A stretch of 34,369 nt of DNA from a virus (taxonomy: Duplodnaviria > Caudoviricetes), in the IMG/VR virus record IMGVR_UViG_3300037045_000029, positions 1-34,369 of that record. The stretch is one strand, 5' to 3'. The translations under genes and the position numbers were made by a program. A model generated the notes under the pieces. The model worked only from the letters and a program-made list of their open reading frames with translations. It ran no database searches and had not been told where the DNA came from. Shown in pieces: positions 19,636 through 32,269 of the stretch. The stretch's first letter is position 1. Each line of letters starts with the position of its first letter.

Positions 19636-19970
19636 CGCTGAGGGAGGCTCGGTGTCTGATGGCCCCGCTTGTCGCCCAGCTGATCCAAGAGGCGCAGAGG
19701 ATCGGGTATGATGTTGCCGTTGACGAATGGACGCAGCGCCAGGGCGCGGGGCACATGCTCAAGAGCCTGCACTACATCGGGCTGGCCGTGGATCTGCTGT
19801 TGTATCGATCGGGTACATACCTGCAGTCCAGCGAGGACTACCGGGCCCTGGGTGAGTTCTGGGAGGGGCTGCATCCGCTTTGCCGCTGGGGCGGGAGATT
19901 TCGCAACAACGCGGGGGATCCTCGCCCGGACGGTGGGCACTTCTCTATCTCGTGGGATGGCCGCGCTTAG
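19632..19970 (+). CDS. Endolysin, peptidase M15 family
   Basis: 'SLHYIGLAVDL' (SxH...D), 'RWGGRF', 'DGGHFS'. Confidence 0.9.
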   Translation: MTLREARCLMAPLVAQLIQEAQRIGYDVAVDEWTQRQGAGHMLKSLHYIGLAVDLLLYRSGTYLQSSEDYRALGEFWEGLHPLCRWGGRFRNNAGDPRPDGGHFSISWDGRA

Positions 19971-20328
19971 CCCTGAGCTCTCCCATGTGGCAGGGATTGC
20001 AAAGGGATTCCAGGAACTGGTCATCCAGCGGGCTCAAGCCACGGGCGACCAGCTCCTCCCGCGGCGGGTTATGATGGACCATATCAGCCGGCACAACCCG
20101 ACCGGCAGCCCTACAGCGCCTGCAAAGTGGCTCAGCGGCACGATGGCGGCGGCTGGCGGCAGTCCAGGCGGCAGATGAGTAGAATCCACGAACCTCGTCC
20201 GTCTTGCGCTCATCCAGGGCCCTGAACGGCTCGCGCCGATCCACTGTATGCGCGGGGCAGTATCCGGGGGCGTCGAGCAGCACAGAGCAGCCGGTGCGGC
20301 GGCAGATCGATTTAGCGCGTTGGGGCAT
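19945..20328 (-). CDS. HNH endonuclease, HK97 gp74-like packaging type
   Basis: 'MP.RAK..C...GC......GYC..H', 'FYSSAAW', 'EPLCRRC', 'VHH..P', 'LESLC.PCH'; AGAAAGG RBS before ATG at 20328. Confidence 0.88.
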   Translation of the reverse strand: MPQRAKSICRRTGCSVLLDAPGYCPAHTVDRREPFRALDERKTDEVRGFYSSAAWTAASRRHRAAEPLCRRCRAAGRVVPADMVHHNPPREELVARGLSPLDDQFLESLCNPCHMGELRAKRGHPTR

Positions 20329-20367: not shown

Positions 20368-20493
20368 ACACAACGTTTTGGCCAATGTACGCCGTGCTGT
20401 TAATTTAAAACGATCGAGCCACAATAGAGGCAAACGGTTGTAACGCCCGTGGAGACCGATTTGTGGGCGCATGGCGTACTTGGCCTGTTAGCT
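20368..20493 (-). repeat. attC-like site 1
   Basis: + strand: AAC gtttt GGCCAA t GTACGCC GTGC ...loop... GCAT GGCGTAC TTGGCC t GTT; 126 bp. Confidence 0.8.
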
Positions 20494-20612
20494 GATGTAA
20501 ATTTTTCTTCCACCAGATTGGCAACCTTTTCTGCTGCCAAGACCGCTTCAATTTCGCACAGGCAATGCTCTCGGATCACGTCGTATACTGTTTGTTTTAA
20601 CAGGGTTGCCAT
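20400..20612 (-). CDS. Cassette-like gene 1, hypothetical, C-terminal Cys motif
   Basis: GGAGG RBS, MATLLKQ...LVEEKFTSANRPSTPCAHK...CLYCG; reads through site 1. Confidence 0.75.
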   Translation of the reverse strand: MATLLKQTVYDVIREHCLCEIEAVLAAEKVANLVEEKFTSANRPSTPCAHKSVSTGVTTVCLYCGSIVLN

Positions 20613-20639
20613 ATAACCTCCAAGGAAAAATTGAATGGT

Positions 20640-20771
20640 GTAGAACGTTATGGCAAAGGTATGCCGTGCCAGACAAAGCCACATTTGACCTCTGAACACC
20701 TGTAATCGTGGAAAAAGTCACATTGCAAACCAAGCTTCCATTGTTTGCATGGCATACTTTGTCTGTTCTGC
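20640..20771 (-). repeat. attC-like site 2
   Basis: + strand: AGAAC gttat GGCAAA g GTATGCC GTGC ... GCAT GGCATAC TTTGTC t GTTCT; 132 bp. Confidence 0.8.
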
Positions 20772-20938
20772 GCCGTTTTGTCAACACCCATAACGCACGT
20801 CGGTTTAGCTCTTTGTGTGTTAGCGATAAGGTCGCCAAGGATCAGCTCGTTAAGTTGGAACAGCTCGGGCAGGCTCAACTTTGAAACATCAGCGCGAATG
20901 TATGCAATCATTTTCTCGGTAGCGCTATATTTTTCCAT
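20648..20938 (-). CDS. Cassette-like gene 2, hypothetical, Cys-rich C-terminus
   Basis: AGGCGG RBS, MEKYSAT...TAQNRQSMPCKQWK...C...C...C; spans nearly all of site 2. Confidence 0.75.
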   Translation of the reverse strand: MEKYSATEKMIAYIRADVSKLSLPELFQLNELILGDLIANTQRAKPTCVMGVDKTAQNRQSMPCKQWKLGLQCDFFHDYRCSEVKCGFVWHGIPLP

Positions 20939-20975
20939 GCTAAACCGCCTACAAATTAAAGGTTGGCAAAATGGC

Positions 20976-21112
20976 GTAGAACGTTCGACAAACTGGCGAA
21001 GTGCTATTGCGCTGACCAAGATCCGAACATGCGCTTTTCGTGACATGCGCCACACTCAATAATCACGTTCTCGCTACCACAGCAATGGCATTTCGGAATT
21101 TGTTTGTTCTGC
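20976..21112 (-). repeat. attC-like site 3
   Basis: + strand: AGAAC gttc GACAAA ctgg CGAAGTGCTATTGC ... GCAATGGCATTTCG gaa TTTGTT t GTTCT; 137 bp. Confidence 0.78.
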
Positions 21113-21321
21113 GCCGTAGTTGGCGACTCCGCATCACGCCTTTCAATTGGGAGGTTTTCCCTCACCTCGGCCAACATGCCACGGAAACGGGCCGAGAAGG
21201 CGATTAGCTCGGAATACGTCTCAAACTTTATGATCGTAGAGTCGCCAACATGAACGAGAATGCACTCACTGTACACGTCGCCTTCGCTGTCGCGCAGGTC
21301 AACGCTGAAACCTAAATCCAT
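21004..21321 (-). CDS. Cassette-like gene 3, hypothetical with Zn-ribbon-like tail
   Basis: GGGAGG RBS, MDLGFSV...TAQNKQIPKCHCCG...CGAC. Confidence 0.78.
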   Translation of the reverse strand: MDLGFSVDLRDSEGDVYSECILVHVGDSTIIKFETYSELIAFSARFRGMLAEVRENLPIERRDAESPTTAQNKQIPKCHCCGSENVIIECGACHEKRMFGSWSAQ

Positions 21322-21365
21322 AAAACCTCCCAATTGAACTATAAAATGGCTCGTCAACTATGGCG

Positions 21366-21505
21366 TCACAACGTTTTGCTAAATGTGCGAAGTTTGCCCG
21401 CCCCACGAATGGCCACACTCTTCGCAAACCCACCGGCCATCCTTGAGAAGATGCGGATACTCGGCCTCGCACTCAGGGCAAATTTCGTCACCTTCGCTGT
21501 TGGTT
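21366..21505 (-). repeat. attC-like site 4
   Basis: + strand: CAAC gtttt GC taaat GTG CGAAGTTTGCCC ... GGGCAAATTTCG t CAC cttc GC t GTTG; 140 bp. Confidence 0.75.
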
Positions 21506-21633
21506 GATGTAAACTTTTCTTCCACCAGTTCACATAAAATTTTCCCTATCCTGGCACGCAAAGTCTCCGTCTGCGGGGGAGCCTCAATCCGTGACATAAT
21601 ACGATCTAAGTAGCCCTTTAAAATTTTATCCAT
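21379..21633 (-). CDS. Cassette-like gene 4, hypothetical with Zn-ribbon-like tail
   Basis: GAAAGG RBS, ...LVEEKFTSTNSEGDEICPEC...WVCEECG. Confidence 0.78.
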   Translation of the reverse strand: MDKILKGYLDRIMSRIEAPPQTETLRARIGKILCELVEEKFTSTNSEGDEICPECEAEYPHLLKDGRWVCEECGHSWGGQTSHI

Positions 21634-21662
21634 AACAAAAAGCCTTTCGAAAAGTTTATTTC

Positions 21663-21803
21663 AACCAACGTCTCGATTAATGGCGCTGTAAAACATTTTT
21701 ACACTCGGCCACCGCTAAACCCATCATGGTGGACAGATTGTCCTCAGATGAGCAATCCCATGCCGACACCACGTGTTTTATGGCGTCCATTTGTCTGTTA
21801 GGC
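21663..21803 (-). repeat. attC-like site 5
   Basis: + strand: AAC gtctc GATTAATGG CGCTGTAAAACAT ... GTGTTTTATGGCG t CCATTTGTC t GTT; R'' on gene strand is GCCTAAC, a perfect RYYYAAC; 141 bp. Confidence 0.8.
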
Positions 21804-22000
21804 GCTGAACTGTTTTGCACCACAGCGTCCTGCGGCGCGTCTTCGCATTTGAATCGGCAGTCACAGAACAGCTCTTCATTCAGTAGGGCGACGATATCGT
21901 CGATTACTCCACGGTCGTCTCCCCCTAAAAATTCGATGTTGAACTCATGCCGATAGTCTTCAGGTGCAGACTCGTGGGCCACCATTATTTTTTTCTTCAT
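21677..22000 (-). CDS. Cassette-like gene 5, hypothetical
   Basis: MKKKIMV...SAPNRQMDAIKH...; reads through site 5. Confidence 0.75.
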   Translation of the reverse strand: MKKKIMVAHESAPEDYRHEFNIEFLGGDDRGVIDDIVALLNEELFCDCRFKCEDAPQDAVVQNSSAPNRQMDAIKHVVSAWDCSSEDNLSTMMGLAVAECKNVLQRH

Positions 22001-22043
22001 CTTCGCGCCGCCTACGGGTAAAAGGTTTTGAAAACAGTTTTTC

Positions 22044-22080
22044 GCCTAACTGGTTATTGTACGTAATTAAACGGATAACC
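22044..22080 (-). other. Array entry site (attI-like/secondary site)
   Basis: Gene strand ...GGTTATCCGTTTAATTACGTACAATAACCA-GTTAGGC: perfect GTTRRRY with no attC-type hairpin before it. Confidence 0.6.
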
Positions 22081-22772: not shown

Positions 22773-22814
22773 TGCTAAACAGCCTTTACAATAACCCATT
22801 GACAATAGTATGAT
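22750..22814. promoter_or_regulatory. Pair of 14 bp direct repeats (candidate operators)
   Basis: GACAAAAGTATGAT (22750-22763) and GACAATAGTATGAT (22801-22814), one in each divergent promoter. Confidence 0.65.
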
Positions 22815-22828
22815 TGTTCGGTTATATT
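22799..22828 (+). promoter_or_regulatory. Rightward sigma70 promoter
   Basis: TTGACA-18 bp-TATATT, 6 bp before ATG 22835 (leaderless geometry). Confidence 0.7.
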
Positions 22829-23020: not shown

Positions 23021-23110
23021 TTTGGTCCAGTTCTTGGTCCACTTACCCCCTGAACATTGTTAACTTATTTCACTTCAAAACGAACTTCTTTACGTTAAAA
23101 ACGCAACGCA

Positions 23111-23161
23111 GTTGGGCTCATAACCCAAAGGCCGCAGGTTCGAATCCTGCCCCCGCTACCA
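23111..23161 (+). other. attP core: 3' part of initiator tRNA-Met (CAT)
   Basis: Anticodon arm TTGGG-CTCATAA-CCCAA (three G-C pairs), T arm GCAGG-TTCGAAT-CCTGC, acceptor 3' strand and CCA; D arm and 5' acceptor strand absent; next to integrase 3' end. Confidence 0.9.
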
Positions 23162-23215: not shown

Positions 23216-24505
23216 TCATTTCTGGTCCACCGTTGGTCCATTTTTCGTGGACCAAGAGTCCATAATGGCCGGGGCCAGATCCAACGCCTCGCGGACCAGA
23301 TACAGGTCGTGCATCGCGTCCGTCTTGTGGCCCTGCAGGGATTTCGCGGTGTCCTTGTCGAGTCCTTTCTCGATTCGGTTGATAAAGTTCCGCGAATACC
23401 GATAGTCGTGAAACGGGCGCATATCTTTCAGCCCCGCCTCTTCATACAGTCCGGTCATCACCAGCCGGCCGCCACAGGCGCAATCCAGTTTCCCCCGGGC
23501 ACGCTTCGATCGGTTGTGCCGTTGGCCACAGGTTGTGCATTGCATCCAACGGATCACCGAGTATGGCGGGTTTTTCCACGGCCAGATCGGCCCGGCCTTC
23601 CGGTTTCCAATCTGGGCCACGAGCGCGTCGTGCAGCTGCCGGGACATCGGCCGGCGGACTATCATTTTCTTCCGCTGCTTCGAGATGATCGCCTTGAACG
23701 ATGGGACAGCGACCAGGCGGCCGCGCTCGTCATGGCGGGGGAGTGACAGGTCAAGGTCTTCAACCTGCCACGGCATCACCTCGTTCACCCGCAGGCCGGA
23801 CTCGTACACCACGGCCAGCAGATTCCGAATGTCATCACTCAGCCCGGTCGTGTAGGTCGCCATGTAGACGCGATCATAGTCCGCGGCGGTCGGCACATAC
23901 GACACAGAGTTGAAATCATAGTCGATGTCCAGCACCTTGCAGGGATTCACGACCCCGGCAATCCGGTTGCGATCAATAAAAAACTGGATGAGCGCCTTCA
24001 GCGTGACGGAATAATTCCAGACATATTTCTGCGACCATTTTTTTTCCGGGAAGTTGTCGAAGAAATCTTCCAACAGATCCGGCTCCTGGTCGAGTCGTAG
24101 CAGGGTATATTTCGCCAGCTTGTGCCGCCTGATGTGGCCGCACAGCGTCTTGGCGCTCGCCACCGTTCCTTTTTTCTCCTTGCCTTTTTCGAGGCGCTTC
24201 TCCTTGTACTGGAGATAGTAGTCGCACATCTGCGCGACAGAGGAGTGCTTCAGGTTAGACGGCAACGCCCGGCCACTCTCGGCTCGGTCTTTCGTCCGTT
24301 CGTCGTATTCGCTTGCCCCTACTTCGCTCTGGTAGTCGGGTGGGCATTTGTACGCCCTCCCCTTGACTACCACAAACCACTCAGGGCCGGCAGATACTAT
24401 TTTATCAATGCGTTTTTGGATGCGTATTTTCAGGGCGGGGCCTGCTTCCAACAGGCTCCGCTCAAGTTCTTTTAGCCTTTTTGCGTTCTTGTCAAAGATC
24501 GACAT
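23216..24505 (-). CDS. int: Tyrosine integrase
   Basis: Catalytic R (ESGLRVNE), HxxR (FHDYR), H (LQGH), Y (HDLY); adjacent attP. Confidence 0.93.
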   Translation of the reverse strand: MSIFDKNAKRLKELERSLLEAGPALKIRIQKRIDKIVSAGPEWFVVVKGRAYKCPPDYQSEVGASEYDERTKDRAESGRALPSNLKHSSVAQMCDYYLQYKEKRLEKGKEKKGTVASAKTLCGHIRRHKLAKYTLLRLDQEPDLLEDFFDNFPEKKWSQKYVWNYSVTLKALIQFFIDRNRIAGVVNPCKVLDIDYDFNSVSYVPTAADYDRVYMATYTTGLSDDIRNLLAVVYESGLRVNEVMPWQVEDLDLSLPRHDERGRLVAVPSFKAIISKQRKKMIVRRPMSRQLHDALVAQIGNRKAGPIWPWKNPPYSVIRWMQCTTCGQRHNRSKRARGKLDCACGGRLVMTGLYEEAGLKDMRPFHDYRYSRNFINRIEKGLDKDTAKSLQGHKTDAMHDLYLVREALDLAPAIMDSWSTKNGPTVDQK

Positions 24506-30735: not shown

Positions 30736-31602
30736 TTATTTACTGGAAACGAAACCCGGATCGCCCGCCACGGCGGCGAGAAACTCGTCGTTTTTGCTAT
30801 CGTCAGCGGAAATGGTGGTATCCTCGACCATCTCCGACACGTCCATCATGTCGATGATGCCGTCGAGCTCGGCGGCCTTGTGCTGCTGCATCTCGCCACG
30901 CTCCACGCGCTCCTCCTGCTCGATGGCGGTGTTCATTTCGACACTGCACGGCAGCGTCTTCATGTGCCGCCGAATCGCCGTCTTCTTGCGCATCTCTGGC
31001 TCGGCAAGCTCATCGGTCCACGGAGTCGCCCGCCCCTTCTGGCGCGCCAAAACCATCCTCTTGATATCATCGATGTGCTCGGAGTCCATCGTGTGAATAA
31101 AGTTTTTTCCATCCGACATCGTTACCACAGAATAGCCCAAAAGCTCCTTGCTTTTTTCGCGCTTCCAGCTTGGCCGGTGTAGCCAGTGCTGCCCTTTTTC
31201 ATCTTCGAAATAATCGAACTGGTCTTTTTCGAAAACGAGGGCGGCGCGGACATCCTGCACCATGCCGGAGTTGCGGGCCATCTGGATCATGCCCTTGTAC
31301 CCCAGCTGGTAGGTCAGTTTGCCCTTGTAGGGAATGAAGTAAATCAGCCCCATTGCCGGGTCAGGGTCCAGGCCGAACTTGACCGCCTGGAAGACGCACG
31401 GAAGAATGCTTTTTTTGTCCGTGACATAGGCGTCGGACAACTTCTGTTTCACGACATCTTCGAAAATCATCACGTAGCGGTCTTTGTTTTTGATATGGTG
31501 CGGTAAGGACCGCTTCACGATTTCCACGAACTTATCCCGCTTGTCCTGCCCGCCACACAACTGCACCATGTTCAAAATCCGGTCTACATTCGACTGCGCC
31601 AT
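30736..31602 (-). CDS. recT: RecT-family single-strand annealing protein
   Basis: 'GLDP...G.IYFIPY....YQLGYKGMIQMARNSG', 'EMRKKTAIRR..KTLP.S'. Confidence 0.92.
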   Translation of the reverse strand: MAQSNVDRILNMVQLCGGQDKRDKFVEIVKRSLPHHIKNKDRYVMIFEDVVKQKLSDAYVTDKKSILPCVFQAVKFGLDPDPAMGLIYFIPYKGKLTYQLGYKGMIQMARNSGMVQDVRAALVFEKDQFDYFEDEKGQHWLHRPSWKREKSKELLGYSVVTMSDGKNFIHTMDSEHIDDIKRMVLARQKGRATPWTDELAEPEMRKKTAIRRHMKTLPCSVEMNTAIEQEERVERGEMQQHKAAELDGIIDMMDVSEMVEDTTISADDSKNDEFLAAVAGDPGFVSSK

Positions 31603-31612
31603 CTCATTCTCC

Positions 31613-32269
31613 TCAGAAAAGGTATTTTGCGACTTCTTCATAAATCCGATATGTCAACTCGGAGTCTTTCATGCAATAGATCCCGATTTCTTCGCCTTTG
31701 CCGGATTCGATCAACTCGATGAATTTTGTGAAATCGTGATCGAGTTTCTTCTCGCCAAGGATAACGCTGGCGGCCACATCAAGGCTCATGTAAGCGCCGG
31801 TCTGCCAGTTGCACAACTCCTGCGCCACGTCGCAATGCGGGGCCGTTTGGTATTTTTTCATAAAGAACTTGCCACCGGGACAGCCTGACGGAAGCGCCAC
31901 CTTCAGGATCATGGCCCGCTTGAAAAGAAACGGGATGTCAAAGTTGAAACCGTTCCAGGTGCAAATCTCCGGCATACTGTCGCCAGTAATGCAGAGGTGC
32001 TCAAGGGCTCGCTCAATCAATCCGATCTCGGCAGAGTCTGATACCTCATCTATCACGTCGTAACCGCCACCCAGCGAGCCCCAGGTGGAGTAGGCGCAAA
32101 TCCGGCCGAAGAGGGGCGATAGTGCCATCTGGTCAATTTGTTTTCGGCGCTTCTCCTCGATTGCCGCGGCGATCTTGGCCGGGTCTTTGATGTTCCCCGG
32201 CGCTTCAGGTTCGGGTAAACAGTCGACCATGGCAATGTTGCTAATCGTCTCGATATCGATTGCTTTCAA
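31613..32269 (-). CDS. 3'-5' exonuclease, DnaQ/PolB-like (DEDDy)
   Basis: ExoI 'IDIET', ExoII 'WNGFNFDIPFL', ExoIII 'YCMKD'. Confidence 0.88.
   Translation of the reverse strand: MKAIDIETISNIAMVDCLPEPEAPGNIKDPAKIAAAIEEKRRKQIDQMALSPLFGRICAYSTWGSLGGGYDVIDEVSDSAEIGLIERALEHLCITGDSMPEICTWNGFNFDIPFLFKRAMILKVALPSGCPGGKFFMKKYQTAPHCDVAQELCNWQTGAYMSLDVAASVILGEKKLDHDFTKFIELIESGKGEEIGIYCMKDSELTYRIYEEVAKYLF

Follow-up and report, generated by a model that had tools for sequence, protein, structure and literature searches.

Integron-like cassettes in a temperate phage, with probable recombination hairpins that also encode protein tails

Introduction

The origin of new gene cassettes is a long-open question about integrons. 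The systems closest to the locus described here are integron cassettes with their attC sites and the phage CALINs, which resemble it in their tandem, co-oriented and promoterless cassettes bounded at G|TT, their AAC..GTT hairpins with a G.T bias on the non-coding strand, their attI-like entry site and their occurrence in phage without an integrase (Qi et al. 2023, PMC9892861). Those parts of that article that are covered here make no mention of coding attC sites (PMC9892861). In the array reported here the reading frames traverse the hairpin, where cassette ORFs otherwise stop; the site has a spacer of 1 x 4–5 nt, a bulge in the distal arm and an outer stem of approximately 20 bp, and there is a second exchange point at AAC. 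The recombinases linked to related arrays also differ from those of integrons in having no IntI insertion.

Alteration of a C-terminus in frame, by a tyrosine recombinase whose site lies inside an ORF, is known from shufflons (Rci/sfx, with the C-terminal variants of PilV), and in this respect the cassettes are like them. A shufflon, however, works by inversion of double-stranded segments, at sites of fixed sequence within a single gene; in the present arrays many heads (the part of a gene before the hairpin) combine with many tails (the part encoded by the hairpin) across mobile cassettes, at hairpin sites. None of the 120 site-bearing loci has sites on both strands, and no invertase was found linked to the related arrays.

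Hairpins embedded in reading frames have been constructed as synthetic protein-coding attC sites and proposed for combinatorial shuffling of modules (Nivina et al. 2020, PMC7439510). Those sites are engineered, have canonical geometry and are recombined by IntI1 (PMC7439510), whereas those described here occur naturally, depart from the canonical form and have a loop that is a domain in its own right. Recombination sites are also translated in the case of short ORFs within attC and of ORF-11 across attI1, which are regulatory peptides (PMC8876359), unlike the tails in this array, which appear to be parts of larger proteins under amino-acid constraint. A survey of the literature, covering titles and the beginnings of abstracts and leaving most subscription journals outside, returned neither a natural protein-coding attC with exchange of heads and tails nor insertion-less recombinases associated with such arrays. 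attC has been regarded as non-coding, and engineering was needed to obtain coding versions for the shuffling of domains; nature appears to use such sites at scale. The array is a variant of integron-type cassettes, dual-coded and shuffled, and not a canonical integron.

Sequences analysed

The window, by which we mean the whole stretch of DNA analysed, is an entire virus record of 34,369 nt with a completeness of 86%. Relatives of its array were collected with six pattern scans, giving 155 loci (38 viral, 111 metagenome and 6 genome), overlapping ones counted. Most are short metagenome contigs, and their phage origin is assumed. Heads with an FTST end are over-represented in the sample, because the FTST motif of window genes 1 and 4 was a query. 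Together with the window (156 loci), 120 loci carry at least one site and 62 at least three, with 310 distinct hairpins across loci; three of the six genome loci carry none. Eight loci taken as bacterial chromosomal, with approximately 10 sites, were excluded from the breakpoint counts at GTT and AAC and from the four-gamete and FTST-QQL counts; they are included in the counts of geometry, stop distance, mismatches and pairing, and loop coding.

The annotated phage collection gave one chance match and no relative of the window array. Searches with tblastn of the window heads and tails against the relative loci gave weak matches only, and no homologues of gene 2 were found. A pattern for the gene 2/3 junction matched one viral locus, from which the array is absent. 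PHROGs and NCBIfam provide no name for the five genes, except for weak zinc-ribbon-type matches of gene 4.

The phage and its cassettes

The virus is a temperate tailed phage. Genes for terminase, portal, capsid, tail and endolysin occupy the + strand up to 19970, and RecT-like, resolvase, excisionase and integrase genes (PHROGs) lie on the - strand. The cassette array is also on the - strand, flanked by the integrase region and the HNH gene (Table 1). The sole Rfam match in the window is to the tRNA fragment at attP, so that the hairpins match no known RNA family, and ARAGORN detected no tRNA genes in the window. Divergent near-consensus sigma-70-like promoters (11/12) are located at 22772-22744 (-) and 22785-22828 (+), the former directed into two ORFs and the cassette array, and the latter into a 68-aa ORF.

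Table 1 Features of the window. Coordinates are those of the window.
Feature	Position	Strand	Description
RecT-like ssDNA annealing protein	30736..31641	-	phrog_148; bears on annealing as a source of mosaics
Phage tyrosine integrase	23216..24505	-	Adjoins attP core; neither IntI nor short cassette-type recombinase
tRNA-like attP core	23096-23150		Rfam match to tRNA fragment
attI-like entry site	22048..22075	-	CGTACAATAACCA|GTT; upstream hairpin absent; -10-like hexamer present
Cassette 5	21669..22049	-	381 nt; both ends pair (inverted repeat I1)
Gene 5	21677..22000	-	107 aa; 55-aa head domain with 15 relatives; hairpin-encoded, likely helical tail
attC-like hairpin 5	21667..21799	-	133 nt, coding; below detector threshold
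Gene 4	21379..21633	-	84 aa; predicted two-helix head and CPEC..CEEC zinc-ribbon-like tail; cassette 4 = 21372-21668
attC-like hairpin 4	21370..21501	-	132 nt, coding
Gene 3	21004..21321	-	105 aa; CHCC..CGAC tail, same tail on unrelated head elsewhere; cassette 3 = 20982-21371
attC-like hairpin 3	20980..21108	-	129 nt, coding
Gene 2	20648..20938	-	96 aa; four-Cys tail; cassette 2 = 20646-20981
attC-like hairpin 2	20644..20767	-	124 nt, coding
Gene 1	20400..20612	-	70 aa; CxH..CxxC tail; cassette 1 = 20374-20645, chimeric 5' end
attC-like hairpin 1	20372..20489	-	118 nt, coding; HNH gene comes next
HNH endonuclease gene	19945..20328	-	phrog_144; downstream of last hairpin site

Each cassette consists of a head, which runs from GTT through the RBS and the ORF start to AAC, and a hairpin, which runs from AAC to GTT, and the ORF reaches the distal arm. 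The hairpins are 118–133 nt long. Four of them score 34–41 on the pairing template, compared with at most 27 elsewhere in the window; the fifth lies under the template threshold and was added by hand. Folding z-scores for the whole hairpins are modest (-2.3 to +0.6), and the signal therefore resides in the arms and not in the loop.

The original prediction held that each of the five ORFs reads the AAC opening its hairpin as an Asn codon, stops only at or in the distal arm and, in four cases, encodes a cluster of Cys. All of this is found in the window. The Asn is in frame in all five (SA-N-RP, AQ-N-RQ, AQ-N-KQ, ST-N-SE and AP-N-RQ), the stops are at 20400, 20648, 21004, 21379 and 21677, and four of the tails have Cys clusters, that of gene 5 having two scattered Cys. 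The stops of genes 1–4 are 28, 4, 24 and 9 nt from the distal GTT, and that of gene 5 is inside the distal arm; genes 1 and 3 thus end at the inner edge of the arm and not deep inside it. Under base shuffling, the chance that all five loops are free of stops is 0.003. As a rule for the family, the conserved Asn codon does not hold: the frames of 96 non-FTST heads divide as 53/32/11, all three being used, and an obligatory Asn frame is rejected. The Asn frame in five of five window genes is unremarkable for the family (0.55^5, about 0.05).

Upstream of cassette 5 there is a GTT, at 22050, which has no hairpin. The motif that contains it is nearly identical, on sequence comparison, to the array entry of locus L146, and recurs in L144 (directly after the recombinase gene), L051, L102 and L085. 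As a conserved motif with a GTT crossover site at the head of the array, 22048-22075 appears to be the counterpart of attI. A CALIN is a cluster of at least 2–3 co-oriented attC-like sites with no integron integrase nearby, and the contig has this arrangement, with five sites on one strand and no such integrase. At the other end of the array, the HNH gene starts approximately 45 nt past the last GTT (20374-20328, -), and in its placement resembles a next cassette; no closing hairpin above background was found for it.

Anatomy of the sites

Canonical attC sites are recombined by IntI in the form of a folded single strand and have a central spacer of around 5–6 nt per side. The sites in these arrays are attC-like, not canonical attC. 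In order along the coding strand, they comprise AAC, A, a stem of 6 bp, a bulge in the distal arm, more stem, the loop, the distal arm, a spacer of 4–5 nt ending in C, and GTT. They share with attC an imperfect AAC..GTT hairpin with a variable terminal loop, and depart from it in the distal-arm bulge, the 1 x 4–5 nt spacer and the outer stem of approximately 20 bp. The distal spacer is 4–5 nt in 298 of 310 hairpins; the proximal spacer of 1 nt was preset in the detector template, and that part of the geometry is partly by construction. The distal (R') arm most commonly has its bulge at position 7, where 182 of 289 sites have G on the coding strand, and hence C on the folded strand. In canonical attC, the extrahelical bases (typically G and T) belong to the R'' arm of the bottom strand and lie close to L'' (PMC5027507, PMC7439510, PMC2727003).

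Mismatches on the coding strand are predominantly A.C rather than G.T, by 525:77 in the inner arms (289 sites) and 247:40 in the outer arms. This excess of A.C implies that folding takes place on the non-coding strand. The bias is that of attC, in which an excess of G.T marks the recombined bottom strand (PMC5027507).

The two ends of a head are complementary to each other over approximately 20 nt (6 bp, a 2-nt gap and further pairs) in 81% of 154 heads, compared with 9% both for cross pairs of head ends and for the array flanks of one hairpin. Since the head ends pair and the hairpin flanks do not, the outer stem would form only in the excised circle or around the head. Its pairing is visible in cassettes 2–5. 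On either strand, the reconstituted circle junctions of cassettes 2, 4 and 5 fold better than the array form, by 8.7–13.6 kcal/mol; those of cassettes 1 and 3 fold no better than it on the non-coding strand. Cassette 1 starts (20646-20632, -) with approximately 13 nt of cassette-2 type, followed by an FTST-type head, and because of this chimeric 5' end its two ends no longer pair. A crossover may have taken place within its outer stem.

Coding capacity of the hairpins

When the reading frame was set from the head alone, 82 of 84 loops (a pool that includes the window's own units) proved to be free of stops, compared with 37 and 6 in the other two frames and 19.2 by shuffling. The first stop is 4–33 nt before GTT in 82 of the 84. 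Base use by codon position, or codon periodicity, is similar in loops and heads. Cys accounts for 194 of 2089 residues in the loops (9.3%) and for 123 of 3097 in the heads (4.0%), and CxxC occurs in 30 of the 84 loops in the gene frame, compared with 3 and 9 in the other frames. In nine pairs of homologous loops (167 codons), 31 single-base changes are synonymous and 22 non-synonymous, with changes by codon position of 54/38/71; similarity of the DNA was used to choose these pairs and the alignments were made on protein, a procedure with a bias towards synonymous changes. These comparisons indicate that the loops are under coding constraint, and bear out the proposal that the DNA is dual-coded as a recombination-type hairpin and a protein tail. 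The further proposal, that the tails are rich in Cys, describes 61 of 112 tails (at least four Cys, or three plus His) and not the 41 that have at most one.

Alternatively, the sole advantage under selection in read-through could be that ribosomes open up the RNA hairpin and thereby maintain expression of the downstream cassettes, in which case the tail would be dispensable. Short ORFs within attC do relieve a translation block (PMC8876359), and extending translation to attC raised downstream expression 2-fold (PMC11511950); in the arrays themselves, stops cluster near the next RBS, and the head of gene 5 also occurs tail-less. The explanation is nevertheless improbable, given the synonymous excess and third-position bias in the loops, the restriction of CxxC enrichment to the gene frame, the head-like codon periodicity, and the conservation of Cys positions between the tail of gene 3 and P0007. 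Selection for translating the hairpin may have been the origin of read-through, but it leaves the amino-acid constraint unexplained.

Among the sites listed for five presumed chromosomal loci (contigs from Patescibacteria MAGs in three cases and metagenome contigs in two), none of the ten has a long ORF through the hairpin, and most of the upstream frames there are shut before or at AAC. In L015 (225-235), a relative of the head of gene 1, the core AAC has become GAC and the reading frame carries on through the hairpin; this site is decaying into plain coding sequence.

The products are predicted to be mini-proteins composed of a head plus a zinc ribbon, or a head plus a helix; both zinc binding by the tails and their translation are predictions. 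A zinc ribbon has two Cys/His knuckles that bind Zn in a β-ribbon. Residues 52–77 of gene 4 match PF08274 (E 2e-5), at 24.9 bits and thus below the cut-off of 30.8. The structural model of gene 4, a weak one (pLDDT 65), has two helices and a β-ribbon, and a PhnA-like protein gives the best structure match to it (30 columns, rmsd 2.0, E 0.17). Genes 1–3 have no Pfam match, and Pfam names two of 90 related proteins.

Exchange at G|TT and at AAC

A cassette with identical head and tail is present in six loci, with a different downstream neighbour each time; the upstream flanks shown also differ. At GTT, 47 near-identical module pairs are broken and none is kept. From these sequences, the dominant crossover appears to be the distal G|TT, carrying head plus tail. 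Movement of the whole unit at G|TT, which is what defines a gene cassette, is thus seen in relatives rather than in the window's own five. At or beside AAC, 27 pairs are broken, four continuous and one intermediate, all module pairs in these counts being non-independent events; the 27 include one internal duplication and four pairs in which the arm is retained and the loop is new (approximately 20 nt after AAC). AAC therefore appears to be a real second exchange point. The suggestion that tails are swapped near the Asn codon stands as regards exchange of heads and tails at or beside AAC, and fails as regards the main crossover. A scheme in which the genes are opposite to the classical cassette orientation, with crossover only at the Asn, was rejected on the grounds that 0 of 47 GTT junctions are co-inherited and on the G.T bias.

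Independent variation of heads and tails, which had been put forward as a check, was found in the homologues. In each of two head families, four tails have been found, all of them in frame; conversely, tails that are identical or nearly so are carried by unrelated heads, with head ends that differ up to the AAC core. For the window's own genes, the head family of gene 4 has three other tails in 3/3 relatives, the 15 relatives of the gene 5 head domain stand alone or with several other tails, the head of gene 1 is found with other tails in L005 and L015 (weak similarity), and the tail of gene 3 is also on an unrelated head. Head-end and arm families form 12 four-gamete sets. Joins of FTST ends to QQL arms (frame +1) number 0, compared with 4.5–5.6 expected.

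The main rival explanation for the swaps at AAC is RecT/Red-type annealing at shared short motifs (the head-end and arm families), with whole genes still moving at G|TT. The phage encodes a RecT-like protein, and genes 1 and 4, whose bodies are unrelated, have a 32-nt head-end motif in common, with 29 identical positions. Exchange driven by homology would preserve the frame unaided, which fits both the 82 of 84 in-frame loops and the lack of FTST-QQL joins. Some breaks fall inside the head-end motif and others at the arm/loop boundary; L033/L037 break approximately 44 nt ahead of AAC, and the four pairs with arm kept and loop new approximately 20 nt past it. Because these breaks are away from the core, exchange of the RecT type at shared motifs must also occur. 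As the general source of the mosaics we regard it as unlikely, since a new pairing of head end and arm requires a crossover within the only bases that they share, the AACA core. The FTST end family is combined with 36 arm families, and one arm family with 13 end families, in addition to the four-gamete sets, and in several pairs with the same tail the head ends match at only 7–13 of 20 nt.

Chimeras of metagenome assembly, formed at shared motifs of 20–30 nt, would produce similar mosaics; the majority of the loci are indeed metagenome contigs of short length, and the motifs approach the size of a k-mer. This is very improbable: some mosaic pairs share only approximately 5 nt at the junction, other mosaics are diverged at the protein level, and a single contig of 86 kb (L008) has a duplicated tail on two of its heads. 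From 20448 on, the array of the window is, moreover, unchanged on one contig of run X1, which is possibly its source. The contigs of two DNA sequencing runs contained no recombination joints and no variants.

Recombinases linked to the arrays

No short or IntI-type recombinase is present in the window contig (86% complete). Its integrase, which has no TIGR02249 match, was rejected as the cassette enzyme because it is of phage type and adjoins attP. Among 24 other array-bearing virus records, one has a short recombinase, one has an ordinary phage integrase and 22, many of them fragments, have neither. The first is the provirus G017, in which the gene for a tyrosine recombinase of 268 aa (L156:1165-1971) immediately precedes an attI-like site and a same-type array; a search of viral contigs with this enzyme returned only itself. 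Two Patescibacteria MAGs encode recombinases of 290–291 aa, divergent from arrays of the same geometry. These MAGs show that the site class occurs in bacteria, and do not identify the host of this phage.

The IntI-specific insertion of integrons is found neither in the window nor in the array-linked recombinases. Those by related arrays score 125, 216 and 194 bits against the IntI model (cut-off 265), each in two stretches, and the three align to XerA structures without the insertion. Between aligned blocks, the G017 enzyme is approximately 50 aa shorter than VchIntIA.

The G017 locus (L144:3983-4781 and downstream) has the layout of a complete integron-like platform, with the entry site immediately past the stop codon of the recombinase, and its co-oriented array of coding hairpins includes a DNA methyltransferase-like gene. 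The Patescibacteria loci (L138/L162 and L141/L161) have an XerA-like recombinase, an entry site and non-coding sites of 135–216 nt, several of them near-identical copies.

Proposed mechanism

In view of what was observed, we consider it rather probable that the window contains five integron-like cassettes in which the hairpins are likely recombination sites that also encode the C-terminal 25–40 residues, the genes having moved at G|TT and the heads and tails having been re-joined at AAC; a short tyrosine recombinase acting in trans is the likely enzyme. In such a mechanism the non-coding strand would fold, and the head's own ends would add an outer stem of approximately 20 bp in the excised circle. 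A cut at AA|C on the folded non-coding strand would be equivalent to G|TT on the coding strand, so that the whole gene would be the normal unit and would insert at the attI-like site. Occasionally the coding strand would be recombined instead, at AA|C within the ORF; it is the breakpoints that suggest this step, as the G.T bias favours only the non-coding strand. Excision between neighbouring sites would then fuse head k to tail k+1, and release a circle with head k+1 and tail k. Selection would remove the out-of-frame fusions and keep those in frame.

The enzyme would be an XerA-like recombinase of 268–291 aa without the IntI insertion, encoded in the host or in a different phage. With no insertion to read the bulge, it would choose between strands less strictly. 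Strand choice is governed mainly by the first extrahelical base (PMC2727003), and top-strand recombination by IntI1 is known but rare (PMC5027507). We have gone further and considered, with the case for and against about evenly balanced, that an insertion-less recombinase cuts the same hairpin on either strand, moving genes at G|TT and fusing heads of approximately 40 residues to tails of approximately 35 residues at AA|C. A single reaction would then give rise to new small proteins and to new cassettes, and the attC site would in itself be a library of protein domains.

The cassettes are likely a natural route to new small proteins. The mechanism would offer a concrete account of many orphan phage mini-proteins and of the birth of new cassettes, and it links phage arrays to recombinases without a domain that was thought necessary for integron activity. 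It would also make a simple test system, which needs a single small recombinase, a single entry site and hairpins in which two points are candidates for the crossover.

Duplicated and nested modules

Within a single phage array, in L008, the same tail occurs twice on different heads (1954 and 2782), and the same head start occurs twice (near 428 and 2321). From their sequences, these duplicates are as would be expected of copy-type cassette movement. Nested or duplicated modules are also present at L002:2702-3085 (-), near 4858-4907 in L006 and near 318 (-) in L126. One kind is an ORF that has two head-end motifs, and the other a short duplication, in tandem, of the hairpin's first arm, with the frame kept.
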